From NCBI RefSeq assembly GCF_964204645.1, contig NC_134032.1, forward strand, positions 7,056,275 to 7,120,274: 64,000 nt of DNA, given 5' to 3'. Shown one piece after another: positions 20,133 through 44,816 of this stretch. Source of the stretch: Tubulanus polymorphus (lineage: Eukaryota > Animalia > Nemertea). Each line of letters opens with the position of its first letter. Positions within the stretch are counted from its first letter, which is position 1. Both the position numbers and the translations under genes were made by a program. Under the pieces are notes generated by a model. The model ran no database searches and was not told the origin of the DNA. It saw only the letters and a program-made list of their open reading frames with translations.

Positions 20133-20229
20133 TTTCACAGATATTAATTAGATAATATTTATATCATAACCGAACAACAAAATATGTAAAATACATCAAT
20201 TTATATAATTTAGTTTGCGTTAAACTCTT

Positions 20230-20322
20230 AGATAGAAATAAGTATCCGAAATGACTAATCCAGGACTTCATTAAGATCCGCTCTAACCAAAGAGGATTAA
20301 CTAAAGTAGTGAGTTTCTATCT
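20230..20322 (+). ncRNA. Candidate structured RNA motif, copy in D left arm
   Basis: Conserved ATCCGAAATGAC and AAAGTAGTGAG with compensatory stems relative to B and C copies. Confidence 0.5.
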
Positions 20323-21009
20323 TTTATGAAATTTATGGTTCTTTCGTGTATAGGTATATGACCTATGTTTATCTACAATATTTATAAAAATATTTATGTT
20401 TTTTAGGACTAAATAAAACATTAATTGAATAAAAGATTTCATTTTTGACTCATTCTGAGTTACGTTAATCTAGCATTTCGTTGCTATCCAGACCCATGAT
20501 ACCATATACCGACAAAGAAGGCAATTAATTGATTTAGATCAATACATGACCACGATTGGGGAAAATAGGTGTGAGCAAAACCAATTACCTAGACTAGTAG
20601 CAGATGGGTCGATAGTATCCAAACACCATTAATTATATGTGGAAGACGAAGGCAATTAAGTGATTTAGATCGGAGACACGTCCGAGATGGGAAATTATGT
20701 GTGAGGTTTCAAACCAATTACACTAGCAATAATTCGAACATTTTTAGTGCTCATAGCGCTGAGGTAATTAAATTGTTTAGAAAAAAACCGAACAGATGGT
20801 CCTATATGCTGGGTGATATTAGACCCGAGTATCAAAAACACCGTTAATTATATGTGATAGAATCCTCAAATACTTTGAGTAAACTGTTAGACTATGAGAA
20901 TTAATCAACTAATTAGTCGTCTGACTTAGACCCATAAATAAGGGGGTAGTTTTAGGACAAATCATTTCCAAGATGTCTGTTATTGGAGCACTAAAATAGT
21001 AGCCGAAAT

Positions 21010-21380
21010 GTTACGTTCGAACTTTATCAAGATATATGGATCTAGTCACGATCACCGTATTACGTAGATATCCGAAAATACGATGAGCTTTTCGACGTAA
21101 ATCCGACTAGATGCGGCATAAAACTAACATTGGAACAATGGAAAAAAATTGAAAGACATTAATTTTACAGAAGATATATCCGAACTGGCTAATATGAGAC
21201 CGTGCTGGTACAATTCGAGTCACTCGAATCAGGAATACAGATGCTCGTACTGCGCAAAAGACACAAGCGGGGTTAGAAAGCACCTGAATACGGTATAATG
21301 ATAACCGAAGTATAATTAAAGTAATTTAAAACCGCTCTGACCAAAAGAGGATTAACTAAAGTAGTGAGTTTCTATCTTTT
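21010..21380 (+). pseudogene. Degenerate duplicate of the 3' half of the PC4 gene and of the RNA motif (mirrored at ~28410-28780)
   Basis: Close match to 19820-20132 with indels, followed by CCGCTCTGACCAAAAGAGGATTAACTAAAGTAGTGAG. Confidence 0.8.
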
Positions 21381-23902: not shown

Positions 23903-24505
23903 AGGAATTAACATATCTTAAGTTAGCTTCACTTTTCTTAGCTACTCTTACAGAAACCAAGTATGGTTAAAAGTTCAAACGATCTTCAAGCCGCATGAAT
24001 CGATCAACAGTATGCCATTTACTGACCGTGACTCGTGGCTACATTCGTATATATGGTTAAGGTCAAGAAAAAGAAATGAACTAGTTTAAGTTGGAAAGCA
24101 TAAAATGTTCTAGTACAAATATCTGGTTAGTTTGCTTAGTCTAAACCATACTTTCACTAACTTAAGAAATTGATGAACCTCATAAACTGAAAATTAAGTT
24201 TGAGGAATTAACATATCTTAAGTTAGCTTCACTTTTCTTAGCTACTCTTACAGAAACCAAGTATGGTTAAAAGTTCAAACGATCTTCAAGCCGCATGAAT
24301 CGATCAACAGTATGCCATTTACTGACCGTGACTCGTGGCTACATTCGTATATATGGTTAAGGTCAAGAAAAAGAAATGAACTAGTTTAAGTTGGAAAGCA
24401 TAAAATGTTCTAGTACAAATATCTGGTTAGTTTGCTTAGTCTAAACCATACTTTCACTAACTTAAGAAATTGATGAACCTCATAAACTGAAAATTAAGTT
24501 TGAGG
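23903..24505 (+). repeat. Exact 300-bp tandem duplication in the D spacer
   Basis: 23903-24202 equals 24203-24502. Confidence 0.95.
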
Positions 24506-27500
24506 TACTAAAAGATACTAAAACGGTAAAATCACTTAAATACTAACACACTAGGATGCGCATTATAGGAATATTTCTATTGATAAAACGGTGGACTCGC
24601 ACACTTTGGACATACCGGGGACAACAGTGTAGTATAAATTGAGCTTGTCGACACTCTTTGTTCTACCACCCGGATGGTGGTGCTACTGAGATTTTTGCCC
24701 ATATTCGCTATATGCATTTTTATCGTATCCCCTATGCACGACCGTTTCTTTTCTAAATATGGTAAATTAGGAATTTTTATAGATTCTTGTTACCTCTATG
24801 TACCAATGTTTGGTTAGGGGAATTCCATTCTATTCCCGACAATCGCTCGATTTTCGTATTTGTCCCAGCCCATTTTCGCGCTTTTGACAAAAAAAAAAGT
24901 GAAACTACATTACAAGCGTGTGTAATCGAGAAATGTTTAAAACTTACAATCTAAACTTTGGTATAAATTTGGATGCTGTAAGACATTAAAACAATGACCA
25001 TAAAGTTGCGCATAATAGGAATATTTCTACTCATAACTTGTGGGGTCTTTAAACTTTATAAAAACCTATATATTAAGCTTGCTTAAATAGAATTACTTCC
25101 AAAAGTGGTCGAACATGCGAATGTGTTAACGTTGATATGAAAACCAGAAAAACACGTCGGTGGCGTTTTAGATGACAACAAGTAGGGATATATTGTTTTA
25201 CATTAAATAGTTAGCGCGTAGTTGTCAATTATCTATTTAAACTCGTCACTTTGAAGTCTGGTAACTTTTCACCCAATTCAATACGCTAGTGTTACATGTT
25301 ATCAGGCACATATACGTACTCCCTAAGGGGCTAATAGATCGCGCATTATTTCAATTAGAATCACTGTGACGCTGAATTCCAGTATTGAAAAACGTTAACT
25401 TACAAATAACGAAGAATTTTACGTTAATGTTAACGAGCTACAGGACCAAAGTTCCTTCATTTGTGTATACATTAGTACTGCGATACACGTCAACGAGTCA
25501 TACCTTTACTGCTTAGGTGTTTTACTGCTTTAGTATCGAATGGTAACACTTTTATTCGGAATTATGGTTCTCGATATTTCAGTTCAAGCGTTTTATGGTT
25601 TACTAAATTCTTTATCTTCACTAAACGAGGTTCTAACAATTTTCAATTTTGAAGAAATGAGGTTTGAACTTTTTTAATAGGAAAATACTATACGGTTTTG
25701 ACAAAATAACATTAGTTAAAAATACGGTTTGACTATTTTTCGATTTTACATATTCGAGGTTTGAATATTTTTCAATTTGAACTAACAACAACGAAAATCT
25801 TGTAAAAAATAAATATGATTAGCGTTCCCGCGTATAATAATACATGTTGTTTTTTATACAAAAAAAATCAAATGCTCAAGCATGCATCAATAGATCTTCG
25901 GTCATCTCATCTTTTTTCTTTTTTGTGCTTGGAAATGAAATACAATTTCATTGAATGTGAATGTGAAATTTAAAAACTGACTCTTGCGTGATTTTTTCAA
26001 TCTTTATAAATTTACCAAGGTCTAGCTGTAAAATGCATGAAATGTAGAAAATCTCGATATAATATTGCAATGTAAAAGTATGGGGAATTTGTGAAAATAT
26101 GTTTAAAAAACATAAATATTTAAGAAAAGTTTTTAAAAATTGGGAATTTTGTAACAAAGAAAAAGCGATGCGAAAAAAGATAAAGTATATACATATACAT
26201 ATTTTTGTCTGTTATTTCTCTATATTTGGAAAGACTAAAGTGATTTAGTTACATGTGTGTGTAGTTTCGTTGTTTAAAATCTCTTGTGTATACAAAACTT
26301 TGGAACCATATTTTTCAAAAACCTAAAAATTGTTATACCGCGTTTATTGAAAATTTAAAATCATCATCCTACTAAAACGCCATATACTGAAAAATGCTAA
26401 AACCGGAAATCCCATTTTCTATTTTTTCATCAAACCTGTTAGTATTTTCCTATTAAAAAAGTCCAAACCATATTTTTTTAAAACTGAAAAATTGTTAAAC
26501 CTCGTTAACTGGAAATAAAGAATTCTGCATTATAATCAATGTAAGTTATCGGGAAATGCTTACAACTCGAAATCTAATAAACTGCGGTTTTACATATTCG
26601 ACACTAAAACACTAAAATCACTTAAACACTAACGCACTAGGATGCGCATTATAAGAGTATTTCTATTGATAAATCATCTAAAACTTTGAAAATGCCGGAG
26701 GGCTACAATGCTGTATAAATTGAGCTTGTCAACACTTTGTATACAATACTTAACATTAGAACATGTCCAAGCGCGTGGCATTGAGTCAAGCCCCGTAACC
26801 ATCTAGTCTCTGATCTTTCAGTTAACCTCATAATTAATTTAACTAAATTCCGTCCTGCAAACCATAAGCTCCCAATAGAAACTGGCCGATGGAATAATGT
26901 AAAGCGTGCTGAAAGAATATGTAAATTGTGTAATAATGGAATTGGGGACGAATTTCATTACCTTTTCAACTGTATATATTTAAATGATAGAAGGGAGTTA
27001 TACCTAGACAGGAGATTTTATACGAACCCCCAACATTTTCAGATAAAAATTATTAATGCAAACTAAAGATGTAGCCGAACTCCGTAAACTGTGTATTTTT
27101 GTTGGAAGAATTTTGAAACTTTTCAATTGATAGCTCACATGAAAATCAATGTGTAATTATGTATCTATCTACTGTGCGTCCTATATATAATTTATTTATT
27201 TTTATGTATACTGTATCACTCGAATTGTCTTTGTATTAAGACCAAAAGTTTGTCAAATAAAGCAAAAGTAAAGTAAAGTAATAGTTTTTTCGATTCATCC
27301 ATGAGATTGTAACGTTAATAAATTCGCTTGCGATATGTTAATAGTTATACTATAGAAATATCTAAAAGCGTCTTTCTTTGGCGTTTTTCCATGCGATCGA
27401 CTACCAGATATAAACCAGCGTCCCGCTGGGTTTTATAGTAAACACTGACAATTACGACGAACCGGGTGAACATTGGCTAACTGTATATATAAACGATTAC

Positions 27501-29466
27501 GGAATCGGTTATTTTTGATTCGTTCGGGCAACATACCGGAACTTGTGATAAATGTTAGAAAAATACTTGGATGAAAATTGTATAGATTGGAAATATAATA
27601 ATAAGATGTATCAAAACGTATTATCCGATGTATTTCTGTTATTACGCAATATCTGTACTATTGCACCTATGTCACGGTAACGATTTACGCGATATTACGA
27701 AACTATTGTCAAATAAAACTAATGATAATGATTATTTTGTAAAAGAAAAATTTATCGTGAAATATTTTAAGCTTCTATAATAAACTATTATGTATATGAA
27801 TTTTGTCATTTTCTAAATTATATTTCTATAAACTCGCCGTAGAAAACCATCTGTTACTAGTCTAGGTTTTCCAAACAGCTTAATCGCGTCAGTCAATCAA
27901 CAAACAACCAACAAACCCGAAATGGGTATACTATAGTTGGTTTGCTCATACTTAATTTCCCCAATCGCGGTTGTGTCTCTGATCTAAATAACTTATTCGG
28001 CAGATGCTAACAACGGGTCAATGGTTTTTGTTTCTCAATTACTTAATTGCGTAATTTTCATCCTGCATATTCCGTCACATATCATCGAGGGTACTGACCA
28101 GATATTTTAGATGGTAGATGCTAACCATGGGTCAATGGTATTTGTTTCTCAATTACTTAATTACGTTCATAGATGATATATTGTATCAAGGGGTCTGGCC
28201 AACGACAAAATGCTTGATTATTATAGAGTAAATCCGAATAAAATGAGACAGATATGAAATATTATATACATTGCAAGTTTATTATTTACTCGTTCATCTA
28301 AAAAACATAAATTTTTTTTTTCCAAAAATATTATACATATACACGGGTTATGGCTTTTATTTATACAATCCGGTAGATGACGAATGAGTCGCTACGTATA
28401 AAAATTCGTAAAAGATAGAAACTCACTACGTTAGTTAATCCTCTTTTGGTCAGAGCGGTTTTAAATTACTTTAATTATACTTGGGTTATCATTATACCGT
28501 ATTCAGGTGCTTTCTAACCCCGCTTGTGTCTTTTGCGCAGTACGAGCATCTGTATTCCTGATTCGAGTGACTCGAATCGTACCAGCACGGTCTCATATTA
28601 GCCAGTTCGGATATATCTTCTGTAAAATTAATGTCTTTCAATTTTTTTCCATTGTTCCAATGTTAGTTTTACGTCGCATCTAGTCGGATTTACGTCGAAA
28701 AGCTCATCGTATTTTCGGATATCTACGTAATACGGTGATCGTGACTAGATCCATATATCTTGATAAAGTTCGAACGTAACATTTCGGCTACTATTTTAGT
28801 GCTCCAATAACAGACATCTTGGAAATGATTTGTCCTAAAACTACCCCCTTATTTATGGGTCTAAGTCAGACGACTAATTAGTTGATTAATTCTCATAGTC
28901 TAACAGTTTACTCAAAGTATTTGAGGATTCTATCACATATAATTAACGGTGTTTTTGATACTCGGGTCTAATATCACCCAGCATATAGGACCATCTGTTC
29001 GGTTTTTTCTAAACAATTTAATTACCTCAGCGCTATGAGCACTAAAAATGTTCGAATTATTGCTAGTGTAATTGGTTTGAAACCTCACACATAATTTCCC
29101 ATCTCGGACGTGTCTCCGATCTAAATCACTTAATTGCCTTCGTCTTCCACATATAATTAATGGTGTTTGGATACTATCGACCCATCTGCTACTAGTCTAG
29201 GTAATTGGTTTTGCTCACACCTATTTTCCCCAATCGTGGTCATGTATTGATCTAAATCAATTAATTGCCTTCTTTGTCGGTATATGGTATCATGGGTCTG
29301 GATAGCAACGAAATGCTAGATTAACGTAACTCAGAATGAGTCAAAAATGAAATCTTTTATTCAATTAATGTTTTATTTAGTCCTAAAAAACATAAATATT
29401 TTTATAAATATTGTAGATAAACATAGGTCATATACCTATACACGAAAAAACCATAAATTTCATAAA

Positions 29467-29559
29467 AGATAGAAACTCACTACTTTAGTTAATCCTCTTT
29501 GGTTAGAGCGGATCTTAATGAAGTCCTGGATTAGTCATTTCGGATACTTATTTCTATCT
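29467..29559 (-). ncRNA. Candidate structured RNA motif, copy in D right arm
   Basis: Inverted copy of 20230-20322. Confidence 0.5.
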
Positions 29560-29656
29560 AAGAGTTTAACGCAAACTAAATTATATAAATTGATGTATTT
29601 TACATATTTTGTTGTTCGGTTATGATATAAATATTATCTAATTAATATCTGTGAAA

Positions 29657-30484
29657 TTATACTTGGGTGATCATTACACCGTATTCAGGTGTTTTTCGTA
29701 CTCCAGAAGTGTCTTTTGCGCAGTACGGACACCTGTATTCCTGATTCGAGTGACTCGAATCATACCAACAGGGCGTCATGTTGGCTAGTTCGGGTATATC
29801 GTCATTAAAATTAATGTCTTTCAATTTTTTCCATTGTTCCAATGTTAGTTTTACACCGCATCTAGTCGGGGAAACACCGAGAGGTTCATCGAATAGATCG
29901 TATTTTCGGATATCTACGTAAATACGATGATCGTGACTAGACCTATATATTTTGATAAAATTCGTACGACCAACAGTCATTACACCCACGTATTCGATAT
30001 CTTCTTTAACGCGCGCAATTTCGTGTTCGATATCGGATTTACAAAAATCTATATGCACCCACTCTTGGAGATCGAGCGAAATACCGTTTTTAGTGGGATA
30101 CAGTTGTTTTCTTCGTTCACAGCACTCGTAGGACCGTAAATCTACACGTTTTACCCCCTGCCACGTTTTCGCACTCGCGTAAACAAGAGATCCCAGATAA
30201 TGGGGTTCGGGGTCATTGTTCCAGGTGTTACGCAAGTTCGCACTTTTCGACGGGACGGCGACAGCGTTGTCATTAACGATCGAACCTAAAAGAACAATAA
30301 AATATTATATATCAGTATACGTATGTCTTAATATTTGACGGTTTCGAATACGGGAAATAAGTAGAAACTTACTAAAGTCGAGTTTCAGCGAGGGGTGTTT
30401 TCTTTTTCTAGATTGAAGCGATGACTTTGCTTTAACTGGTGTATTAGATATTTCTAAAATACTTTGTCCGCTGGCCGAATCCAT
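29657..30484 (-). CDS. Spliced tandem-PC4 protein, right-arm copy
   Basis: Mirror of 19305-20132 (one D/N difference in the ORF track). Confidence 0.85.
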
Positions 30485-30885
30485 TATTACGATGATGTTG
30501 TATGATGTTGACGGTTCAAAGTCTCTGAGCAGAATGACTAAATTATGGATTTGCAACGCGTTTTTATTGTCAGAAAATGACTTACCCGAACTCGTTTTAT
30601 GGTTTTACATGTTACGAAATATGTTCGCCTAAACTTGTCTATGATTTCACAATAGCCGTCAAAAGAAGCCATCTTGGATTTAATCCCGCTCCCCTCTCTA
30701 TACACGCGCTCGCATAAGATTATATAATCATGGCATCATCTAGGATGACGTCACTCGCTTACACACGTACACACAAACGCACGCATGCGCACGCATCTGT
30801 ATAGGATTACGGACTAGCGCCATCTAGGATTTAACTGCGCACTCGCTTTGTTTACACTCGCATAAACGAGACGTGACTTACGAAA

Positions 30886-31452
30886 ATGTCTGGCGATTTT
30901 TTTACCGTGGAAAACATTTTCCTAAAAAAAAAAAAAAAAAAATCAACTACCACGGAACATGAAATAAATCATGTCGACTTTGAAGATATCGACTGGTCTA
31001 CCGGATTTGCGATTTGCAAATATTGTAATACGACAATTACATACGGTAGTTTTCGAGTAACGACGTGTTGCAGGAAACCGATTTGTGAAGATTGCTGGCT
31101 AGTGAACGCTCGATGGTTAGGCGTTCAACATGATTTCGAATGTCCTATCGAGAATTGCATGGCACATTTTAGGATTATCAAACATATCGCGAAAAAAGAC
31201 TGTTATCGTTGTCACGCGCAAGAGGATTTGCTTCATTGTTGTGATAAAACTATATGCTGGCCCTGTTTAAGCGAACTTAAAACGTGTGAAGGGTATGAAG
31301 AAAATTTTTGTTATAACTGCATAACTTTATTTTGTGGCATCAACACGTGTTTAGTATGTTTGGAAATAACTAAACAAAAGACAGACTGCTGCGACGTTTA
31401 TATTCACGTCTCGTGCGCCAAGGAATTCGGATTTAAACCGTGTTTAAACTAA
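30886..31452 (+). CDS. 188-aa Cys-rich multi-RING-like protein (intact copy)
   Basis: ATG in frame through A19 tract; three zinc-binding clusters. Confidence 0.7.
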   Translation: MSGDFFTVENIFLKKKKKKSTTTEHEINHVDFEDIDWSTGFAICKYCNTTITYGSFRVTTCCRKPICEDCWLVNARWLGVQHDFECPIENCMAHFRIIKHIAKKDCYRCHAQEDLLHCCDKTICWPCLSELKTCEGYEENFCYNCITLFCGINTCLVCLEITKQKTDCCDVYIHVSCAKEFGFKPCLN

Positions 31453-33207
31453 ATTTTAACGGTGAATAAAATGTTTTTTTTAATTGTTTTACATTGTTTT
31501 TTTAATTTTTGGTTTTCTTTGTCTCGAATTTGCCCGTACTCAGGGAAAAGCGCCATCTAGGATTTAACTTCACTTCCCCCTCACCTTCACGTACACATAT
31601 GATCTCGTAATAGCGCCATCTAGGATTCAACTTTTCCCATAAACACGCATAGGAATGCGTAAGCGCCATCTAGGATTCAATCATACCAATAAATAAATTT
31701 GGATTGAACACCGCCAATAAATTTGATTTGGATTTAACACCGCCAATAAATTGATTTGGATTTGTTGTCAATAATTTGATTTGGATTTAACGGAAAAATT
31801 TTGAATTTTCCCGCCAAAAATTTGAAATTTGAATTTCAACCGCCACTTCCGGCCGCCATCTTGGATGACGTCACTTCCGGTCACCATCTTGGATTACGTC
31901 ACTTCCGGCCGCCATCTTGGATGACGTCACTTCCGGTATGACGTCATCCCTCCTCCCTCCCCCCTCCTCACTCCTCCCCCTCCCTCATTGAGGTCCTGAA
32001 GTGACATTTCCTAACTACTACTGGGTATAGATAATACGAGTGAAAGATTTTAAAAGTTATTCATTTGTCGATTTACGTAAAAACTCAACTTATAGTCTCT
32101 TTCGATTTTGGAACGTTCTTCTTCACATGTCTTGTTATTGTTACACCTTGGATCAGTAATCATAAGGTTACACTGCACATGCACTATATCCGATACAGTT
32201 GATCAGCAAGCGTATCAACCGAATTGATTTACTAGGGAAAAGAGACATTGTCCGAACATTTATCGTTTTAACGAATTGTTCGTATCATCGTGTTCACAGT
32301 ATCAGACTACTTGTATACCGATACATTCCACTATGTTATAAGATTTAACAAAATCGTATTTAATTCAATGACAATCATGTTCCAATGACGATCACTGTTG
32401 TTGTATCCTACAAAGATATCTTTAACCGTTCAAATTATAAACAGCTCCTGCGCGTATATATTCGTCTTGAAAGTACATATTTATATGATCAATCTTATCT
32501 TCAATCTTATTTGTATAAAGAAATGAAATGTTGTGTAAACCTCATTCATCAATTTGACTTGTAAGATATAATTGAAAAAAGAAAGATTATGTATATGAAT
32601 TTTGTACAATGATCGGTGGCTATTGGCGCTCGCTTGGTCTATACGTATGGAAAAACATGCCCTCAAAAGCTGGGACATGGTCAAATTCAGTGCCAGATCC
32701 ACCCCATGAACCAGCATTACAAAATGAAGAGAGACTATGACGATGGCAGTACTTCAAATCCAGGACCCGGTACTGTTTCAGGATCTTCACATCCCATAAT
32801 CACAGTTGAGTTGTGACCAACATACTCTGATTTTCAGAAGGGAGAGTGATCAAGGGAGGGAGGGGCGGGAGGGGAGAGGGAAAGAGAACAATAATTGTAA
32901 GTTGAATTATACGGAAGTATCAATGTTTATACCCTCTCATCAACGCAAGTTGTAATCAGGCCCATAGCCAGGGCCCTTCAAGGGGGTGTGCGATATAAAC
33001 TACAAGTGGACCTAACCACGCCGGTAAAGCCAAGCGGCTTATTGTTAAAATTTATCATTGTTATCATTACTGTTACTATTATTATCATCCATTGTTATAA
33101 TAATCAGCTTTTGTGCATTTGATATTTATTATATAACTTTTGATCACCGTCAATTGTCACTTTTACTTAAAAATAATTGTAATTGCACCTTAGCATGTAT
33201 TCATTTA

Positions 33208-33551
33208 AGTAATTAGAAAAGTGGGGTTTCAGATCAGAGGTCGAGAGGTCGAGACACCACTCATCACAGCTAGGCTCTAGTGAGAACGGACGATTGCTCT
33301 GTGACACACATATACAGTGAGTGCGCGTAACAGCAGCTGCGCGTGGATAGATCGATACAGTGAGTCTCTACTGAGAACGGTTATTAACGCGTGTGCTATT
33401 ATTGTAGTAGTACAGTGATTGCGTGTCAACTGTACCCGGATAAATAGATGCTGTGAGGCTTGGGTGAGAACGGTTAATAGCGTGTTTGTTATATACAAGG
33501 GGAAGTAATCCCCACTCATCACCACAAGTAATTTGTTTTCCTTATAAATGG
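33208..33551 (+). repeat. Left TIR of B
   Basis: Inverted match to 49869-50212 with about 5 mismatches; ends at the ATGG of the terminal gene. Confidence 0.95.
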
Positions 33552-33874
33552 GAGATAGAAAAGCATTCTTAGCAACAATAAATAACAGAATAAAACCAGC
33601 AAAAAAACAATTTGAAATAAAAAAGTTAGTTGATGTTACAAAAGAAATTGAACATAAAATATTGAAATTAGAAAAGATAAAAACTAAATATGGAGAGAAA
33701 GTATCAGCTAATTTAAGCTACTGTAATGTTAGTACATCACGAGAATTTAAAGTGTTTTTACCTGATAAATGGGTTACATTGAGTACGGAGGAATTGAAAG
33801 ATTTAGTAGGATTTAAAATAATATATCATGGGAAAAATGAAGACGGTCATCATGATTTAGAAATTGTTGATTAA
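33548..33874 (+). CDS. 108-aa putative SSB-like protein
   Basis: Homologs in A and C; function inferred. Confidence 0.75.
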   Translation: MGDRKAFLATINNRIKPAKKQFEIKKLVDVTKEIEHKILKLEKIKTKYGEKVSANLSYCNVSTSREFKVFLPDKWVTLSTEELKDLVGFKIIYHGKNEDGHHDLEIVD

Positions 33875-33904
33875 ATTTTTTAAAAAATAAATTAATAAAA
33901 ATAA

Positions 33905-34011
33905 TGAATATCTAGAATCCGAAATGACTTATCTGGACAATTTAATTGCTCCGCATAGATGGTGCCATAAACAGCACCACACAGTGATAGACAAAAGTAG
34001 TGAGATATTCA
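33905..34011 (+). ncRNA. Candidate structured RNA motif, copy in element B
   Basis: TGAATATCT/AGATATTCA closing stem, conserved internal loop and covarying inner stems. Confidence 0.5.
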
Positions 34012-34052
34012 ATTAATTAAAAAAAATTATTTTTTTGCTTTTTTCTAAAATA

Positions 34053-34421
34053 TTAATCCATTTTTTTTATTATCAATTTTGGAATTTCAGAAGTACTTTC
34101 ATTTTTGATAGCAGTTGGTTCAGAATTACTAATATCATGAATTTTATTTGATTTCTTATACCAACTACACCCAATCAAAATGAATACAATTACAAATCCA
34201 ACTGTAAAATATAAATATTTATCAAATATTCTACTATTAGAAGGAGTAGAAATAACAATATTTTCACCATTTTTATTAACATTTTTATTACTTATTTTTT
34301 CTTTTACAGCTTTTTTATATTCTTGTGATTTAATTCCTAATTGCCGAGACCATTCAATTTGTTTCTGAGTTCTCGGTTTTTTCTTCACAGTTAATTCCTT
34401 CACTTCTTTCACCTCGCTCAT
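34053..34421 (-). CDS. 122-aa basic single-TM protein
   Basis: KKPRTQKQIEW N-terminus; TM YLYFTVGFVIVFILIGCSWY. Confidence 0.7.
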   Translation of the reverse strand: MSEVKEVKELTVKKKPRTQKQIEWSRQLGIKSQEYKKAVKEKISNKNVNKNGENIVISTPSNSRIFDKYLYFTVGFVIVFILIGCSWYKKSNKIHDISNSEPTAIKNESTSEIPKLIIKKMD

Positions 34422-34953
34422 TTATTATAGAAATATTTTTACTTTCAATATTTGAAAATGTTATAACTCCAGTTGATAATAATGTCATAAATCCACCTAA
34501 TTGAAATGATAAATATCCAATCCATTTATTTAATTCAGTCATAACTAAATAATCATTTTTTAAATCGGAATATAATCTATTTTCATCTTCAATTGGTAGT
34601 ATATAATTACATAATTTACTATAACCTTTTACTACATTTTCTGATATCGCGTCATTAATTTTAGCTGTTCTCGCGGCTTCATAAATCTTAAATAATCTAA
34701 TAATTTCATCTGATTTCATTGTATCTAATTCATTATAAGTTAAATTTTTACCGACAAAATTTTTACATTTTCCAGATGCTATTAATATTTCTAATTGATG
34801 TTTACAATAAAGATAATATTCATAATTATTATTTGTTGTAACATTATTTAAAGCACCATCATCTGGAGTTTGTTTCTGTTATTCCTAAATCATCTAAAGT
34901 TTTTTCAATTGGAACATCACCATTTTTAGATTTTATTTTCTTTTCACCTCCCA
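34354..34953 (-). pseudogene. Conserved hypothetical protein, frameshifted near the N-terminus
   Basis: TAAATG start near 34953; frame upstream of the 121-aa ORF reads KHQLEILIASGKCKNFVGKNLTY. Confidence 0.6.
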
Positions 34954-34982
34954 TTTATATAACAAACAAATTAGTTGTGTTG

Positions 34983-35235
34983 TTGCAACTAGAATTCAAC
35001 TAGAATGTAACTAGAATTCAATTAGATTAACAAGCTAGTTGAAATATTGTTATTTTTGTTTATTTCTTGTTAAATCTAGTTGATTTTTGTTCCAACTACC
35101 AATAACTAGAATTCAACTAGAATGTAAATAGAATTAAACTAGATTAACAAGCTAGTTAAAATATTGTTAAATCTATTTGATTTTTGTTACAACTACCAAT
35201 AACTAGAATTCAACTAGAATGTAACTAAATATGTA
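34983..35235. repeat. Intergenic CAACTAGAAT direct/inverted repeat block, related to 11636-11760 in C
   Basis: Three AACTAGAATTCAACTAGAATGTAA units with interspersed CTAGTTG inverted copies. Confidence 0.75.
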
Positions 35236-35258
35236 ATTGATTAACAAACTAATTAAAT

Positions 35259-35866
35259 TTAAATAAATTCATATTTAAATGGGTGTTGTAATCTAAATAG
35301 TAATTTTGATCTTTTAATATTTTTCAACTTATCCATATATTCATTATGTAAATCATGTGGAATAATATCATTTTCCTCAAGTGCATTTTTCATCGATTTT
35401 CTATCTTTATTGTAGAATAAAACTAGAAATCTAATGTTTTCTCTAAAGTCTTTAACAATTGAATTATATTTTTGATTTAAAACCCAAGTTGTTATCCCAA
35501 AATGTCTCCCAGAGAAAGCTAAATAGCATAACTCACTTTCTCTAACTTTTGAATCATGTAGATTAGCACAATCATCTATAATGAATAATGTATTTGATCC
35601 TTTATAAATATCAATTGCTATTTTTATACAATTATCTAAATTTTCTTTTACTGTTTAGGATCTAATATAATAAATTTATTATTCCTAGTAATATTTTTAT
35701 CATAAGTTTGATTAAATTCATATGTTGGACAAAATAATACTATATTATCAAAATAGTTTTCATAAACAGTTTCTAATAAATGTAATATAAAATAAGTTTT
35801 TCCACAATTTGTTACACCAGAAATTAACATATTATGAGGCTCAAATATGAATAATTCCTTATTCAT
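35259..35866 (-). pseudogene. A32/FtsK-like packaging ATPase, frameshift near 35652
   Basis: Walker A GVTNCGKT; shifted frame gives Walker B LFIIDDC and SGRH...LNQ motif. Confidence 0.9.
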
Positions 35867-36994
35867 TTATATATTTTTAATTTTATTTGATAATATCCAT
35901 TCATTGAATTTATCTGGCCATCCAACCCATTTTACTAAAGAATATTTTTTTCTTTTAATAGTTTTTGTTTTTAATACTTTTTCAATTTTATATTCTTGTT
36001 CTAGATTTTCAGTAGTTAAACTTAATTCTTCTTCGTAAAAGTAGCCATCAACTTCTTCACCATCTAAATCTTCTAATTTATAGACATATGGTTTTGTTGT
36101 TATTACCTTTTTTATTTTATATATTTCTCTAGTAAAATTTCGATCGTATCCTTTATCAAATATCTTTTTATACTTAGAAATTCTAACATTTTGACCAACT
36201 TTAAATTTAGGTTCACCAAAATCATCTATAAGAAATGCTCCATATAAATTATTCCAAACAATTTCAGCATTTTCAGGTTTTCTAGCATCAATAGGTTTCA
36301 TTCCAATAGAAGAATGATAAGAATTATTATATCCTTCTATCAATTTTGGTAAAACATCAATCCATTTAAAAGTATTATTTGCTGTAAAATATTTCCACAT
36401 TCTTGTTCTTAATGTTCTATTAAATCGTTCAACAACTGCTGCTTTTTTATCTGATTTTGTTGAAAAATATTTAATATTATGATTATCTAAGAGTTCATGA
36501 ACAAGTGAATTATCAAATTCTTTTCCATCATCAAATTGTATTTTTTCTGGTTTTAGTTTATCATCCGAAAGAAATTTTCTTAAAACATTTGATGTTTGTA
36601 CAGCATCTTTTCTATAAAGTGGGAAGCTCCATATATAACGACTAAAAATATCAATTATATTCAATAACCACCAATAATCATCATTATCTTTCTTAACATT
36701 TTTCATATCAATTAAATCTCCTTGCCACTGTTGATCTACATAACTTACCATAGTTTTACGAGTTTCATATTTTCTAACAATTTTTTTATGTGTTGTATAT
36801 GTTGGTTGTTCTAACATAAATTCATTTATATCTTTGTATTTAACTAAATTTTGTGGGATTATCTTATCTAATTTATCTTGTTTTACTTGACGCCATATAA
36901 GTTTGGTAGAAGAATAAGCAACCGAACTCTCAGGGTTGTAATATAAATTTCTTAAATATTGTTCTTTAGTATTAGGAGTTTTTTTACCACTCAT
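35867..36994 (-). CDS. Retroviral-like (rve) integrase with C-terminal chromodomain
   Basis: DDE triad QGDLID / QFDDGKEF / VVERFNRT; chromodomain YKIEKVL...LVKWVGWPDKFNEWI. Confidence 0.96.
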   Translation of the reverse strand: MSGKKTPNTKEQYLRNLYYNPESSVAYSSTKLIWRQVKQDKLDKIIPQNLVKYKDINEFMLEQPTYTTHKKIVRKYETRKTMVSYVDQQWQGDLIDMKNVKKDNDDYWWLLNIIDIFSRYIWSFPLYRKDAVQTSNVLRKFLSDDKLKPEKIQFDDGKEFDNSLVHELLDNHNIKYFSTKSDKKAAVVERFNRTLRTRMWKYFTANNTFKWIDVLPKLIEGYNNSYHSSIGMKPIDARKPENAEIVWNNLYGAFLIDDFGEPKFKVGQNVRISKYKKIFDKGYDRNFTREIYKIKKVITTKPYVYKLEDLDGEEVDGYFYEEELSLTTENLEQEYKIEKVLKTKTIKRKKYSLVKWVGWPDKFNEWILSNKIKNI

Positions 36995-37024
36995 TTATAT
37001 ATCCTTAATTTTAACTTTATATTT

Positions 37025-38270
37025 CTAATATTGAATACTATCTAATTGTGAATTTACAATATTTAATTGTGCGTCAGATATAATATAAATATGCATTTTA
37101 AAATTTTTGATTCCTTTATTCTTTTTCATAAATAATTGTATTCCATCTTTAGTGTTTTGTAGTTTTTTTCCAGAACCATGTAATGAATTATCCTCTGTTG
37201 TTCTAAAATCTAACCATAATGCATATTTATTACCGGTATAATAATCAATTTGATTAATGTTACAATTTTCAAATGATTTTATTTTTTCATTCATAAAATG
37301 TTTTTTAATTTCTACCCATTGATCTATCATTCTCATTCCTTGACAAAATATTTTATTCGCTATTCCTTCGATAGTTATTTCTACTTTTGTTATTTCAGGA
37401 TTATAATAATTGTCAACATTTATTGCGCCATTAGTATACGTTCCAATAGTAAAAAATATTAATATACCTTTAATAGATCTTCTAGGAAAGTTAATATTCT
37501 CATTTATTATTTCATCATTTGCATTAATAGTTACAGTTTTAAATTTATCAATATAATCATATAATAATGAAAATCCTTGATTGTATTGAGTTTGAATTAT
37601 ACTTGAAATATTTTCATCAGTTACTGTATCATATTCTAAACATATATTCGATAATTTATAACTCATATCTTTATTAACGCTAGATAATACAATTTCATTT
37701 ACAGGAGCAAATGTTATCTCAAATATAATATCTTCTTGAATTGCGTATTTATATAAAGGTGCATTATTATTTATCAATTCAAAGTCTAATGGAATTTTAT
37801 ATTTGCTTCCATATATACTTTTTATCAATTTATCTACATCATTTGTTAATATTGCGCTATTAGCTTCTGATCTTAATTTATTTTGGTTTTCTGATTGAAT
37901 TCCTTGAAATATCATATTATTTCTATTTTCTTTAGTTAACCATAAATCTTTATAATGCATAAATAAATTATAATCATCTAATGAGAACTGTTTCCGGACC
38001 AATCTTTATTGTTAACTTTTTAATCAAATATCTTCCAACATTATCAACAACATAATTATTATTATTACCGATTACTTTTATATCGGCTGATAAATAAATA
38101 CTATTTGGAACATAAAAAGTATTTTGTGTTAATCTAGGAATTCTAACATATAAAGTTTCATCGGGATTAATATTTGAAGGGTTATGAGTAATTATATGAT
38201 GTGATCTTTCTGCTTTAATAGCATTAGATATTCTATGATTCTTCAAAGGACTTATATAACTCCCACTCAT
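37025..38270 (-). pseudogene. Major capsid protein (double jelly-roll), frameshift near 37985
   Basis: 98-aa and 325-aa ORFs join into a ~415-aa beta-rich protein adjacent to integrase and ATPase; only MCP-sized candidate in a complete element. Confidence 0.75.
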
Positions 38271-38294
38271 TTATTTAACAAAAAAATTAATTAT

Positions 38295-39731
38295 TTATTT
38301 TTTGATATTTTTTGATATCATGTTTACTAACCCAAAAATAATAGCACTTACAACTGTGATTAAAAATAAAATAATATGTTCAGCAGCAAAGTTAATAATG
38401 TTTCCTGCAGATTTCAATATAAAACCAACAATTGAAGCAATAACTCCTGGTAGTGCTGCAGCAGATTTTTTAGATAGTTCCCATAAATATTTTGCTAATT
38501 TCTTTAAACCATCCTTAACTTTATCTTGTATAGAATTATTGCCTGGAGGTTTATCTGGTTTATTGGGAGTGGGAGTAGATTTTAAAGCATTTGATATAGC
38601 TAAACCAATTGTTGTAAATAACATAGTTACAGCTGTTAGAATTGAAAGAATTGTTATTCCTTCTAATTTAAATAATAATCTTATTCTGTCTTTTAGTGAT
38701 ATTTCAGAATTTGGTTTAATCAACAAATCTTTAAAAATAACTTTTAATCTATTAATATTATAATCATATGATTTTAACAATAATTTAATTTCTTCTTTTT
38801 GTAATTCTATGTTATATTCTAAATCATCTTTTTCTTTTTCTAAACGTAATTCTTTTTGCCTATATTCTATTTCATCAATTACTTGATGATCTAAATCGGA
38901 CTTTAATTGTTCTATTTCTTTATTTTTATCAGTTAATTCTTTTTCTAAAGTTCTAATTTTAAAATCTCTTATACTTTTATTATGTGCAATTTTATCAGAT
39001 GCAAGTCTTATACTAATAATTTCTCTAATTGCTTTATCAGAAAATATATCTAAATCTTCTAATTCTTGATCTGTTGCATCAAGTAACCCATTCGGTAAAA
39101 GTTTTTCAATTGGAACTTTATTTGATTTAAGTTTACTATTTTTGGAAGTTATATTCTGTTCAGAAGTTGTTTCTGTTTCTGATTTCTTTTTGATTATTTC
39201 AAATAATTCATTAATTCTTTGTTTAAATACATCTATATTATCATCTATTTCTTTTTGTGTAACATCAGTTATTTCATTACTATTGCTTATTATTTTAATT
39301 CTATCTGGTTTTAATTTTTCTAAAGTTGATTCTGATAATATTTTATTTTTATTATTTTTATAAGTGATATCAATATAATAATCACCTTTCAAACGATAAT
39401 AACATTTACCATTATCTAAAAATTTTAATTGATCTGCTAAAAGTCCAACGTCTTCATCATTTATGTTAAAATTAGATTTTTCAATTAAATCTTCTAATTT
39501 AGGTATTTTGTTTAAATTATCTAAATCTTGTTTTACTAAATCTGGGTCTAAATTTTCAGGATTTAATTGTGATTCAGCATTTTTAATATAATCAGGCATA
39601 TTCAAATTATTATTATATTCTGGCTCGGTACCATCATTAAAACTTGTTTCATCAAAATCAGGTGGTTGTTCATCAGTTATACCAGGTTCATCAAAAGGAT
39701 CCATTCTAATATCTCCACCTTCTACATCCAT
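38295..39731 (-). CDS. 478-aa acidic/coiled-coil protein with C-terminal hydrophobic helices
   Basis: Long heptad region, then GITILSILTAVTMLFTTIGLAI, an amphipathic helix and IILFLITVVSAIIFGLV. Confidence 0.8.
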   Translation of the reverse strand: MDVEGGDIRMDPFDEPGITDEQPPDFDETSFNDGTEPEYNNNLNMPDYIKNAESQLNPENLDPDLVKQDLDNLNKIPKLEDLIEKSNFNINDEDVGLLADQLKFLDNGKCYYRLKGDYYIDITYKNNKNKILSESTLEKLKPDRIKIISNSNEITDVTQKEIDDNIDVFKQRINELFEIIKKKSETETTSEQNITSKNSKLKSNKVPIEKLLPNGLLDATDQELEDLDIFSDKAIREIISIRLASDKIAHNKSIRDFKIRTLEKELTDKNKEIEQLKSDLDHQVIDEIEYRQKELRLEKEKDDLEYNIELQKEEIKLLLKSYDYNINRLKVIFKDLLIKPNSEISLKDRIRLLFKLEGITILSILTAVTMLFTTIGLAISNALKSTPTPNKPDKPPGNNSIQDKVKDGLKKLAKYLWELSKKSAAALPGVIASIVGFILKSAGNIINFAAEHIILFLITVVSAIIFGLVNMISKNIKK

Positions 39732-39748
39732 TTATATAATAAAAAAAA

Positions 39749-41164
39749 TTAAAATTTAAAATATAATATTCCTCCGATTATAATTCCTATACAAGTTATA
39801 GCTAATTTAGTATTTTCATGTGATTTATTATCATCATTTAGTTTAATTATATCATGTTGAATATTATCAGTTCTATTATCACCGTGTGGGTGCCGTACGG
39901 CACCATTTTCTGATGTATTATAATCTTTTATTTTAGAATCATTATTTAATTTAATATTCTTAGTTTTAGTTTCTGTTGATTGAATATGTTTTTTATTTTT
40001 TTCACCTTCCATTAATTTTGGAGCAGTAATAATCTTTTTATTTATATCATTTAATCCAAATGAATTATTTATTGTCGCAGTTTTAATTAGATTATTATAA
40101 CCAATTATATTTCCCATCTTTAATACTAAATCATTAGAAATAATTAATAGATTAGGGCCTATACAATAATTAAGTCTTACATGAGATTTATCTAAATAAT
40201 TTTGATATCTTATAATGTTTTCTGGAATCGATCTATTTTTATCATTATGAATTGAATCTTCAAATAAAACTTTAAATTGTTTTTGTGTATCGAATGATGT
40301 ATTCAAATTTCCAATTATCGGTGATCTTGTTTCAACTTGTGATCCTAGAATACAAATCAAATAAGTTCTAATAGATTGATTTATTCTTTCTATACCTGAT
40401 TTAGTAAAACCTTCACTATTTTCTAAAATAAAATAAACCCAACCATTATTGTTTTCTTGTTTTAAATTATCATAAAATTTTGGTAATTTATTGAAATTTA
40501 ATGTTTCTAAATCCTTTGTTTCTATTTTACCATAACCTAATTTTTTATTATAGATATTATAAAAGCTATTAGATGGTATGGGAAGTGCACAATATTCTGC
40601 AATCTTTCTAGGGCAAGGAAGTGATCTTATTGTTCCAATTTTTATTCTAAAATCAGAATTATTTATATCTATATTAAATTCATTGCAAATTTTATAAAAC
40701 TTTGATAAATTAATATTATTATCTAATTCTTTAAAATATCTAGATCCTGGTAAAGCGCACTCTAATTCATTTAATATTATTCTGATTTGAAAGTATGTAT
40801 GAAATCTAAATAAACTTTGAATTAATTTATATTAAGAATTATTCAAATGATCATTCCAACTAATTCCACATCCTGTTGTTGCACAATAAACAGCAAAATT
40901 TAATTGGTTCTGCCAATACTTCATATTAGATTTTAATAACCATTGTTTTTCATCTTTCAATTTTTCAAAATCAATTAAATATACATGAAATATATTTTCC
41001 ATCTTTGCATTAAAATTATTAGTTTCAGTAACATAAATATATAAATCAATTAATGAATCTAAAACTTCATTTCTATATGTAATATCTTTATTAAAATCTA
41101 TTGCTGGAATATTATATTTAATTGATTTATTATATTGGAAAGTTTTTGGAAAACTATCTGCCAT
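39749..41164 (-). pseudogene. Conserved Polinton protein with C-terminal TM, nonsense at 40832-40834
   Basis: Colinear with 611-2044; A reads AAA where B has TAA. Confidence 0.8.
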
Positions 41165-41204
41165 TTATATAACTAAAAAATTAATAATTTATTAATTCTT
41201 TTAA

Positions 41205-41606
41205 TTATTTATCTTGTTCTTCAACTGTTATATGACCATTTAAACTTATTATATAATCTAGTGTATTCTTTAATTTATTAATTTCTTTTATATTAGTTTT
41301 GATTTTTTCTTTATTACTTTTTATATTTAATTTTGAACTTATACCAGTTAAAACACTTGAACTTAATCCTAACACACCAATTGATATAGCTAATGGACTG
41401 AATATTGCTAGAAATGTTATTACAGAACTAATTGTAACCGAACCACTGATAATCAAATAATATATAATTTTACTTTTTAAATATTTTTTCTTTTTTATCT
41501 TTAAGTCACTTTCAAATTCTAATATTTGTTTTTCTAAATATGTTTTTAATTTAGTTTTATTTATATCATGAGGAATAATATCAATACTATCAACTTTATC
41601 TTCCAT
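41205..41606 (-). CDS. Two-TM protein, slightly truncated by nonsense codon
   Basis: Homolog of 2062..2496. Confidence 0.75.
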   Translation of the reverse strand: MEDKVDSIDIIPHDINKTKLKTYLEKQILEFESDLKIKKKKYLKSKIIYYLIISGSVTISSVITFLAIFSPLAISIGVLGLSSSVLTGISSKLNIKSNKEKIKTNIKEINKLKNTLDYIISLNGHITVEEQDK

Positions 41607-41625
41607 TTATTTAGCAAAAAAATTA

Positions 41626-42048
41626 CTAATTAGTAAACTTATGAGCAACAAATATAACAATAACAGTTCCGCCTAAAATCCATATTATTTCATATTTCTG
41701 TTGTTCTTTACTCGGGGTATAATAATCTGATAATTTAGGTTTGTATAGATGTAATTTTTCTTTATTTGTTACTGCGTTATATAAACTCATTGCATCATCA
41801 ACTGATTGAAAATCTCTATGTGAAATCTTCTGATCATATAATTCTTTGTTAATATAATCCATATAGTTTTGTCTCTTTTCTCTATATTCTTCTGCATCTT
41901 TATTATATTTCTCTAACGCTAAATTATGTCTTCTTTGTTCTCCTAATGAACTATTTTTATCAATATGTTTAAATAAATAACCACCACCAGTAAATGCTAA
42001 AGCGTTAACAATTGCCGATCCTATAATAGTTATAATTGCAGAAGCCAT
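41626..42048 (-). CDS. 140-aa putative membrane-active protein (PW-like)
   Basis: Homolog of 2516..2938. Confidence 0.55.
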   Translation of the reverse strand: MASAIITIIGSAIVNALAFTGGGYLFKHIDKNSSLGEQRRHNLALEKYNKDAEEYREKRQNYMDYINKELYDQKISHRDFQSVDDAMSLYNAVTNKEKLHLYKPKLSDYYTPSKEQQKYEIIWILGGTVIVIFVAHKFTN

Positions 42049-42073
42049 TTATTTAGCAAAAAAAATTATGCAT

Positions 42074-42295
42074 TTATATGGGAGGAATATATTTTTGTTT
42101 TTCCAAATAATCAATAGTTAAATTAGATAAAGTAACTGCTAACGTTAATTTCAAAATATCATTGATATCAAATCTATCAACATTAACACTTCCCATTTTG
42201 AATACTTTTTTTAATACCATTGAATAACCAACAGTTCCAACTGATAGTAATGCGCCATTATATAATCCAGTTATTATCCACTTATTATCACTCAT
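42074..42295 (-). CDS. 73-aa hydrophobic protein
   Basis: Identical to 2963..3184 protein. Confidence 0.75.
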   Translation of the reverse strand: MSDNKWIITGLYNGALLSVGTVGYSMVLKKVFKMGSVNVDRFDINDILKLTLAVTLSNLTIDYLEKQKYIPPI

Positions 42296-42298
42296 TTA

Positions 42299-42643
42299 TT
42301 AATCAAAAAAATTACTATCTTCAAAATATTTAGTTATCTTAGTGATGATTAATTCAACATTTATTTCATTACTAGTTTTATGATTATCATATATTTCGGT
42401 TAATATGTTTTTAATATCATCGATGATAAAATCTTCATCTAATTCATAAAATCTTAAAGACTCGGTAATCTTTTCTACATTAAAAGTTTCTTTATCAATT
42501 GTTGTTTCATACTCAAATGTTGTTTCATTAGAAAATGCAATATTTTTGATATGTGTAATTACATCATTAATGTTAAATTTCATTTCTTTACAATGTTTAA
42601 AATCAAATCCAAAACATATACTCGGTCCAACAGTTATATTCAT
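42299..42643 (-). CDS. 114-aa hypothetical protein
   Basis: Homolog of 3185..3526. Confidence 0.7.
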   Translation of the reverse strand: MNITVGPSICFGFDFKHCKEMKFNINDVITHIKNIAFSNETTFEYETTIDKETFNVEKITESLRFYELDEDFIIDDIKNILTEIYDNHKTSNEINVELIITKITKYFEDSNFFD

Positions 42644-42659
42644 TTATATAATGAAAAAA

Positions 42660-43457
42660 TTACTCTCTACATCTTATAACTAATTCATATATCACAGGAA
42701 AGTTATTTAAATCAATTAAGTATCCATTATGATTTCTAATTTCTAATCTAAAATTATTAAATTGAGGAATACAAGGTTTGAAATCACATTCAGCTAAATT
42801 ATAATTTATTTGCGTTCCAAATTGTTTAACATTCTTCAATGGTAAAATGTTTAATATACTAGAATTACATGTTGTATCTTTAGTTGCTTCGAATGTTTTT
42901 GTAGGATCGATTAAATTGCAATAAATATAAAAGTGTGTAAAAGGTATTATATTTGAGTTACCATGTTTGTTTCCACCAAATTGATTTGGAGTAATTCCTA
43001 ATAGTTTAGCTATAGGTTTTTTTACTGTGTAAGTATGTCTTCTTGTCATCAATGGATCAGATTTAACAAGTTTAATAAGTTCATCATCAAGCTTTATTTT
43101 AATTTTATTAGAGCTCTCACTTTTTATGAATTTAATATTAAATTTGGAATTACCATTACCTAATCTAATCCGAGCTTTTCTATTAATTTCTTGCGCTAAT
43201 GTTTCTAAATTATATAATCCTGGTGTAAGCATAAGTTGAATCCATTTTTTTTCAAGTTTATCAAAAATAAGAAGGCTTCTATGTTCATCAGTTTTATCCG
43301 ATATATTATAAAAAGAATTACATAAACTTATATTTACTAATTTTAAATCTACACAATTCTTAAATTCTCTATCTAATTGTACTAATAAATTATGAGATTT
43401 ATAATTTATAAGTTTTCTAGAATCAACAAATATTCTGTATTCTTTTAATTCTACCAT
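42660..43457 (-). CDS. Minor capsid protein (penton)
   Basis: Homolog of 3544..4305. Confidence 0.75.
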   Translation of the reverse strand: MVELKEYRIFVDSRKLINYKSHNLLVQLDREFKNCVDLKLVNISLCNSFYNISDKTDEHRSLLIFDKLEKKWIQLMLTPGLYNLETLAQEINRKARIRLGNGNSKFNIKFIKSESSNKIKIKLDDELIKLVKSDPLMTRRHTYTVKKPIAKLLGITPNQFGGNKHGNSNIIPFTHFYIYCNLIDPTKTFEATKDTTCNSSILNILPLKNVKQFGTQINYNLAECDFKPCIPQFNNFRLEIRNHNGYLIDLNNFPVIYELVIRCRE

Positions 43458-43514
43458 TATTTATAACATAAAAAAATTACACTCATCACCACAAGTAATT
43501 TTTTCCCCTAATAA

Positions 43515-44816
43515 ATGGATGAGAAGATAGCATGCGAAATTTGTGGTGAACTTATCAGAAAGAGTAATATGGCTCGACATATGAAAAAACATGATGAAAA
43601 TTATAAACCCCCTAAACAAAACTGTCCAAAATGTAATAAATTATTCTCAAGAAATTATGTTAAAAAACATTCAGAGAAGTGTAGAATTAATGGCGCAACG
43701 GCTAATGTTGATAGTAATTCTGCTGAAGTTGAACCTGAAGTTATTTGGAAAAGACCTTTCTTATTCTATGATAAGGATAATATAAAAGATCATTTCTGTG
43801 AGCCTTGTCAAGTAAAATATAACCCCGAAAATATAGAAGATTGGGAGAATCATCAATTTCGTAAAGCACATATAGATAAAATTTCTAATAAATTTGAAAC
43901 TGAATTCAATGAAAGAAAAAATAATTTATTAGAAAAAATAAAATATGAGAAAACGTTACTAGATAATAAAGAAACAGTTGAAAAGTTAGAAAAACAATAT
44001 AATGAATTAACAAGAAAAACATATTATTGTAAATATTGTAAATTGATTATTACAACAAGTAATTCAAATCTACATAATAGAACAATAAAACATAAAGAAA
44101 ACGTAAGAAAATACCAAGAGCTTAATGAAGATCTATTACCAATATATTATAAACAAAAATGCCCACAATGTATTTATGCGACCTTAAGACAAGAAGGTAC
44201 TATGTTATTTTGTGTTGAATGTGGATGGCAAAAGAATTTATGGGGTGAAGAAAAAACTAGAGATTTTCTCATAGAACCAAAATTAAATTATCTAGATGAA
44301 ATTTTTAAAATATTTTCTATAGAAGATCATACACCAGAATATATGCAATGGCTTGAAAAAATGAAAATAATAGAAAATAAAAATGGTGAAATAACTAAAA
44401 AAGATATTATAAAAACAATTATTCCACCAACATTTAACACAAAACAAAAGAAAATGTATTTATATTTATTATTTAACGATTATTATGAAAAACCTAAATT
44501 AACAGAAGAAGATATGGAAAATATTAAAAAAATATTCAAACAAATATTAATGTATCATTTGGAAAATAGAATAACAGATTCAATAAATTATGAATTCTTT
44601 TTAAATAAGATTGTAAATTATTTAAACATAGATATTATAATTCCATTTGACGAATTAACAAACAAAAAGAAACAAAGAGAGCGAGATGAAATGTGGAACA
44701 AGATAGAAATTTATTTAAATGAGAAAAATGGAATTGAAGAAGAACCTGAACAATTAAATGAAAATGAAGAAGCCAATAGTGATTTCGAGTTTGATGATAT
44801 TGATTTTATGTTTTAA
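43515..44816 (+). CDS. 433-aa multi-zinc-finger protein
   Basis: CEIC..H..H, CPKC..H..C, CEPC..H..H, CKYC..H..H and CPQC..CVEC clusters; acidic tail. Confidence 0.8.
   Translation: MDEKIACEICGELIRKSNMARHMKKHDENYKPPKQNCPKCNKLFSRNYVKKHSEKCRINGATANVDSNSAEVEPEVIWKRPFLFYDKDNIKDHFCEPCQVKYNPENIEDWENHQFRKAHIDKISNKFETEFNERKNNLLEKIKYEKTLLDNKETVEKLEKQYNELTRKTYYCKYCKLIITTSNSNLHNRTIKHKENVRKYQELNEDLLPIYYKQKCPQCIYATLRQEGTMLFCVECGWQKNLWGEEKTRDFLIEPKLNYLDEIFKIFSIEDHTPEYMQWLEKMKIIENKNGEITKKDIIKTIIPPTFNTKQKKMYLYLLFNDYYEKPKLTEEDMENIKKIFKQILMYHLENRITDSINYEFFLNKIVNYLNIDIIIPFDELTNKKKQRERDEMWNKIEIYLNEKNGIEEEPEQLNENEEANSDFEFDDIDFMF

Follow-up and report, generated by a model that had tools for sequence, protein, structure and literature searches.

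The locus raises the question of what a motif repeated in several transposable elements of Tubulanus polymorphus is, and what it does. An earlier note on this DNA had described a covarying RNA motif shared by the otherwise unrelated elements B, C and D, located downstream of their putative ssDNA-binding genes, and had suggested an undescribed ribozyme or a 3'-end processing or stability element. The whole 64,000-nt stretch that was analysed (contig NC_134032.1, positions 7,056,275 to 7,120,274) is referred to as the window, and coordinates are those of the window unless a homolog locus is named.

Motif copies and host elements in the window

The copy in element B is full and is located at 33905..34011 (+). 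It contains helix P1, a conserved 16x13-nt internal loop, P2, P3, and P4 with a longer insert, and was scored at 50.4 bits using a model from which it had been held out. The 5' strand of the internal loop (33913..33928, +), which presumably holds the GAA half of a loop-E-like module, is followed by the 5' arm of P2 (33929..33934, +), whose partner in the covariation model is 33985-33990. The P3 hairpin (33935..33952, +) has a GGA/UCC base, a one-base bulge and a variable top, the hairpin in the P4 position lies at 33960..33979 (+), and the 3' strand of the internal loop (33991..34003, +) carries the AGUA half of the loop-E-like module.

Three other copies are present, one in element C (14297..14375, -; 57 bits with the held-out model) and one in each arm of element D (left, 20230..20322, +, 60.6 bits with the held-out model; right, 29467..29559, -). 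None of 93 positions differs between the two D copies, since they occupy the two arms of a 6-kb inverted repeat. Copy C is derived from a B-type copy, with which it has 77 identical nucleotides; it is without the 28 nt that hold B's extra hairpin, and thus without P4, and its inner length is 34 versus 62 in copy B. A 20-letter two-part pattern produced 4 matches in the window compared with a mean of 0.00 in 100 shuffles, and the coordinates and strands given previously for the four copies were confirmed by a sequence check. The half copies noted near 21331 and 28415 are also present. The one in the left arm (21318..21376, +) is a 3' half containing P4, the P2 arm, the 3' loop strand and the P1 arm, is located behind a second PC4-like stretch, and scored 21.1 bits; its mirror (28414..28472, -) has one change in the loop strand and scored 16.4 bits. 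A decayed 5' half (about 15203..15242, -) lies in C directly behind the 108-aa gene, with a score of 9.9 bits (E 4.4) and support from the DNA alignment to B. Since the window contains only two independent motif sequences, covariation is not demonstrable from the window alone.

Members of the Polinton/Maverick family have terminal inverted repeats (TIRs) with AGT-type ends and a 6-bp target duplication. Element B (33208..50212) is a Polinton/Maverick with a pPolB containing an intein, an rve integrase with a chromodomain, 348-nt TIRs and a 6-bp target duplication. Element C (11194..15702) is a short derivative of a B-type element with 444-nt TIRs and a 6-bp target duplication, and element D (17771..32019) has 6-kb inverted arms, Polinton-like termini and a 6-bp target duplication. 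All three are assigned to one transposition system because they have in common the start AGTA(A/G)T, the terminal inverted repeats and the 6-bp target duplications; pPolB and the rve integrase are found in B only and are absent from C and D. The 108-aa gene of B is also present in C (98% identical), and the DNA alignment of D with B produced no match outside the motif. The description of the elements as otherwise unrelated thus applies to D and B at the level of DNA, but not to the set, since all three are Polinton-system insertions and C carries a gene of B.

Several other features of these elements were recorded. The inverted arms of D are unusually long, being 99% identical over 6 kb. D also contains PC4-like stretches in tandem, an ORF rich in Cys and, near 22275-22364, a short remnant resembling adenain. 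A second partial Polinton, element A (1-9200), is 74-88% identical to B over its genes. On one side the terminal repeat of B (33208-33555) reaches the start codon of the 108-aa gene, and on the other (49865-50212) that of pPolB; 46 nt of the repeat's inner end recur at 43480-43525, before a 433-aa ORF at 43515; this inner end is possibly a promoter that is reused three times. The pPolB of B (45250-49872, -) has an intein with a LAGLIDADG-like domain (PF14890, PF14528); the ORF stops in the intein region, and the last part of the polymerase is a separate ORF (44813-45103). Tandem arrays with units of 24, 47 and 35 nt and two facing arrays with a 21-22-nt unit occur at 12464-13066, 13671-14375, 58810-59397 and 51374-52438, and the flanking DNA contains a fragmented PIF1-like helicase and part of a hAT dimerisation domain (59406-61597 and 10579-10803).

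Homologs, structure and covariation

Homologs outside the window were sought by pattern scans keyed on the letters of the motif core. The window-derived pattern matched three stretches in IMG/VR; two (L001 and L002) represented a single chance match within a phage ORF and were rejected. The third, L003, is 2,735 nt long, encodes birnavirus VP1 and carries the motif 17 nt past the stop codon. Both stretches matched by a second pattern were birnavirus records, and L004, like L003, encodes birnavirus VP1. Aquabirnaviruses are dsRNA viruses of fish and are unrelated to Polintons. Four aquabirnavirus segment B records were found with VP1 (90-100% identical); two of them contain the whole motif, two end inside its 5' strand, and all four match the motif as far as their sequence reaches. 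In the full birnavirus record, the motif is located at 2647-2736 of 2784, so that about 48-57 nt remain to the 3' end, and folding placed it apart from the stem-loop at the segment's terminus.

A metagenome scan produced nine stretches, of which four (L006, L011, L013 and L014) have the full architecture. All four are on contigs with Polinton-type genes, the pattern itself being gene-blind: L006 has an adenain (PF00770), L011 has ORFs at 37-38% identity, L013 has an integrase with 33% identity to that of element B, and L014 has ORFs that reach 41% identity to those of element B. In a sequencing run of the window's organism, one contig of 5,801 nt aligned only over the D motif (20221-20326, 9 differences) and is probably another element carrying the motif. 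None of the sequencing runs listed for this DNA was an RNA run; reads matching the D region were from DNA or untyped runs and are uninformative about expression, and their differences over the PC4 ORF include contributions from its paralog.

Candidates from a single bacterial locus (L007, L009, L010, L012 and L101; 15 bits, no P2) were rejected. L008 (884-990, -; 34.5 bits) and L102 (1489-1583, +; 31 bits) have the core by selection and are without the GGA/UCC hairpin; both were judged to be chance matches. A relaxed IMG/VR scan with 86 stretches yielded no new member, and in two other relaxed IMG/VR scans, with at least 120 stretches each, none of the 240 listed exceeded 21 bits except the known birnavirus record. 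The two matches in 596 Gb of prokaryote genomes were both judged chance, and the phage collection had no match to the motif.

The fold comprises about 95 nt and proceeds from P1 through the 16x13-nt internal loop and a P2 of 5-6 bp to a three-way junction with P3 and P4. The GGA/UCC base and one-base bulge of P3 are present in eight of nine copies (L013 differs), and P4, previously described as an optional variable hairpin, can form in eight of the nine aligned copies and is missing in C only. The P3 and P4 loops have no sequence in common among the copies. The internal loop has about 23 invariant positions, and the invariance of the core is partly circular because the core letters were used to select the matches.

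Covariation was evaluated in several ways. With RNAalifold and an unfitted MAFFT alignment of the nine copies, P2 alone was predicted, with changes on both sides at 5 of 5 pairs. Both-side changes were found at 14 of 16 pairs when the named structure was applied to the nine copies, and at 17 of 18 pairs when the four helices were examined in the six non-window sequences. The covariation score was not reached by any of 500 shuffles, and in the six non-window sequences 82% of positions paired in the true register versus 31-51% in slid controls. At anchor-fixed positions, 39 of 40 P2 cells pair, and the pairing of each arm with its own partner was the best of 40,320 permutations. P1 and P2 were both present in 8/8 true copies (copy C was left out of this count as a derivative) versus 1/68 chance anchor matches. 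G-U pairs are present on the sense strand of the motif. The model built from the six non-window sequences scored the window copies at 50-61 bits, and a model built from Polinton-type rows only, which had been aligned using the first model, scored the two birnavirus records at 69 bits and the best non-members at 34.5 and 31 bits.

Other results concern the fit of individual sequences. P1 requires small register shifts in three copies, the P2 arm of copy B has a second possible pairing, the minimum-energy fold of the birnavirus 3' UTR differs from the model, and sequences folded singly have little stability (z -2.1 to +1.5). The close relationship of L003 with L004 leaves about seven independent lineages; since the stems are wholly rewritten in these lineages yet still pair, long selection on the structure is indicated. 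The pattern scans returned further homologs, in Polinton-like contigs and in aquabirnavirus segment B, and together with the covariation counts these homologs support an RNA structure of the sense strand that is conserved, covaries and lies in non-coding sequence on the 3' side of genes. The earlier statement that the stems change but still pair is borne out once the outside homologs are added, although not from the two independent types in the window.

The position of the motif relative to genes was compared among the copies. A same-strand stop codon lies 14-111 nt upstream in 6/9 copies. Copy B follows the 108-aa ORF (33548..33874, +), which has no Pfam match (nearest named cluster PF17427, score 0.88) and an AlphaFold model whose pLDDT of 57.5 makes it uninformative; its look-alikes are mostly eukaryotic, with Arthropoda the commonest among the few that have a record. 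Judged from sequence, it is possible, as a lead only, that this is a phi29-type ssDNA-binding protein. Copy D follows a PC4-domain ORF (19809..20132, +; PF02229, E 3.3e-06; open frame from 19485; mirror 29657-29980, -). The sense orientation 3' of the 108-aa gene, at a distance of 896 nt in C, or of the PC4 gene in D is as had been reported. The motif in L013 is about 190-230 nt from putative upstream frames, and the 120 nt present upstream in L006 contain no same-strand ORF. In homologs, the gene preceding the motif is a birnavirus RNA polymerase, a capsid-like ORF or a further Polinton ORF, and element A has a 113-aa paralog (33% identical to the 108-aa protein) that is located elsewhere and without the motif. 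The proposed tie to ssDNA-binding genes fails on both of these points. An ORF begins about 20-60 nt downstream of the motif in L011 and L013. In L011 (478-586), the motif takes up all of the sequence that separates a capsid-like ORF from a protease ORF, with a stop codon abutting P1 and an ATG about 20 nt past the core; a query with the capsid-like protein found no relative in IMG/VR.

Known RNAs and possible functions

With E values of up to 10 admitted, no Rfam family matched the motif in the window; at the five homolog loci compared there was likewise no match, the only hit being snoRNA sR19 on the opposite strand (E 9.8). The s2m element was presumably among the 4227 Rfam families compared. 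Large viral 3'-UTR reporter screens, which to our knowledge are in subscription papers, could bear on the novelty of the motif. In the full-text literature search the motif was not described; subscription papers in general, supplements and the UTR figures of PMC12191561, which are pictures only, could also bear on this point. The terms 'structured RNA' and 'RNA element' did not occur in the Polinton literature searched.

Structured 3'-UTR elements are known from viruses whose mRNAs are without a cap and/or poly(A), among them the 3' cap-independent translation enhancers of plant viruses (BTE, PTE, ISS and YSS) and the viral 3'-UTR stability elements that recruit TENT4. The motif resembles them in kind and in proposed working principle, but it occurs in animal hosts, matches no Rfam family and has no conserved CNGGN hairpin loop. 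The preferred explanation, held tentatively and at slightly less than an even chance, is that a conserved host factor of animals binds the motif in the 3' UTR, with a resulting gain in translation or stability that would replace or aid poly(A). The large internal loop would serve as the binding site for the host protein, P2 would by its fixed length set this loop against the P3/P4 junction to form a binding surface, and the bound mRNA would be better translated or more stable, the element acting instead of a poly(A) tail or together with one. The partner is probably supplied by the host, since no protein common to the two viruses could be identified and only the animal cell is shared by both, and the affected step would be cytoplasmic because birnaviruses replicate there and their mRNAs are without cap and poly(A). 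Translation initiation factors or a poly(A)-tail enzyme complex may be suggested as candidate partners by analogy only. As stated in the excerpted text of a 2026 review, IPNV mRNA is VPg-linked and without poly(A), segment B is without an IRES, and the function of the IPNV 3' UTR is uninvestigated (PMC13120071).

This explanation is favoured because free stems and a conserved loop at a fixed distance from the junction indicate a binding surface or a catalytic core, because the animal cell is shared, and because a cut would detach terminal cytosines. The stability or expression half of the original inference is thus better than the ribozyme half. Polinton mRNAs are presumably capped and polyadenylated, and the need for an enhancer is therefore less obvious in Polintons. 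Given the ORF that begins downstream in L011 and L013, the motif could also act on the following gene. The decay of copies (D and C contain half copies, and C has lost P4), the 896-nt distance in C, the absence of the motif from all three further pPolB-related loci (partial contigs) and the weak single-sequence folding stand against the host-factor element.

A link to DNA replication was considered given that each window type has either a PC4 gene or a candidate phi29-type SSB gene upstream, so that the motif might be an ssDNA signal read by the ssDNA-binding proteins of the elements. This is extremely improbable, since occurrence in a dsRNA virus without a DNA stage argues that the motif acts as RNA and largely refutes the reading, and other Polinton copies are behind unrelated genes. 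A self-cleaving ribozyme of a new class, in which the loop would dock on the P3/P4 junction and the cut would set the mRNA end or start downstream translation, is unlikely. The hairpin and twister-sister ribozymes have a conserved loop set off from a junction by a helix of fixed length, and the motif, with its roughly 23 invariant loop positions and fixed-length helix leading to a conserved junction, has a similar anatomy. Hammerhead and hairpin ribozymes have the core words CUGANGA and N/GUC, respectively; CUGANGA is found in 0/9 copies and GUC in 1/9, in a variable stem, so that both are absent from the core, and no Rfam ribozyme model matches. According to an excerpt of PMC13725137, small ribozymes occur in the UTRs of linear dsRNA viruses and can start translation, and the L011 motif occupies a spacer between two ORFs; the described viral cases are mainly in 5' UTRs. 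The position of the motif 48-57 nt from the 3' end of the birnavirus segment makes cleavage less likely: a cut in segment B would detach the last 48-130 nt including the terminal cytosines, which prime second-strand synthesis (PMC12191561 and PMC7168660, in part), and no ORF follows.

Similarity to the retroviral constitutive transport element (CTE) prompted an explanation in which the internal loop binds NXF1/NXT directly and aids the export of intronless Polinton mRNAs and polysome loading; its probability is likewise low. Both RNAs have an internal loop between helices and are common to a virus and other genomes, and one strand of the SRV-1 CTE loop, read from a primer in the available part of PMC4330393, aligns 11/11 to the 5' loop strand of the motif with two single-base insertions (shuffle p 0.004, chosen post hoc). 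Excerpted sources indicate that CTE function is conserved from fish to man (PMC4338338) and that NXF1 promotes polysome loading (PMC4174252). However, AAGACA, named as the defining internal-loop feature of the CTE (PMC4330393 and PMC4174252, in part), is absent from 9/9 copies, and the opposite loop strand has no similarity (p 0.99). The motif loop is 16x13 nt with a loop-E-like module, versus 6x6 nt for the NXF1 CTE inner loop (PMC4338338, in part), and the motif has a three-way junction and occurs in a cytoplasmic virus without a nuclear stage. A protein-free exonuclease barrier or 3'-end-forming structure that protects the message would be consistent with the 3' location, the three-way junction and the need of tail-less birnavirus mRNA for protection. 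Known xrRNAs require a conserved pseudoknot partner, whereas the P3 and P4 loops are without common sequence and visual inspection of the alignment revealed no such partner; intrinsic stability is weak and the complete birnavirus record continues for 57 nt past the core, which makes this explanation quite unlikely. The IBDV 3'-terminal stem-loop, found in the same UTR, is at the extreme 3' end, whereas the motif ends 48 nt upstream and folds separately.

The s2m element is a mobile 3'-UTR element of astro-, corona-, picorna- and caliciviruses, and the motif could similarly be a horizontally moved passenger of little benefit. Its patchy distribution and decayed copies agree with this, and s2m, itself a 3'-UTR RNA structure that is patchily common to distant viruses, provides a precedent for such movement (PMC8352927, excerpt). 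The passenger explanation is nevertheless very unlikely given stems that were rewritten yet pair in about seven lineages and the match of 4/4 aquabirnavirus segment B records as far as they reach. The motif also differs from s2m in having no Rfam match, a size of about 95 nt with a junction, and freely covarying stems, and in linking a dsDNA element with a dsRNA virus.

Significance

Within the sequences compared and the literature searched, the motif is an undescribed structured RNA family common to animal-type Polintons and aquabirnaviruses. In the tests made it lies outside the CTE, the known small ribozymes and s2m, and the family may be new while its job may be of a known kind. It rather probably represents an undescribed class of RNA that has moved between two virus realms, those of animal Polintons (dsDNA) and aquabirnaviruses (dsRNA), and whose members would be self-cleaving ribozymes of a new kind or else a new, portable type of expression element that substitutes for poly(A) and recruits a conserved host factor. 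Either outcome, a new ribozyme class or a new expression element, would be of use, and the 95-nt size makes testing cheap. Within the literature searched, this is the first structured RNA reported from Polintons, and a covariation-backed structure is now available for most of the 3' UTR of aquabirnavirus segment B. Such a class of RNA, if real, would explain how the tail-less IPNV polymerase mRNA is kept and translated. That one motif occurs in both a dsDNA element and a dsRNA virus suggests that a regulatory RNA was transferred across realms and that its partner in the animal host is conserved.
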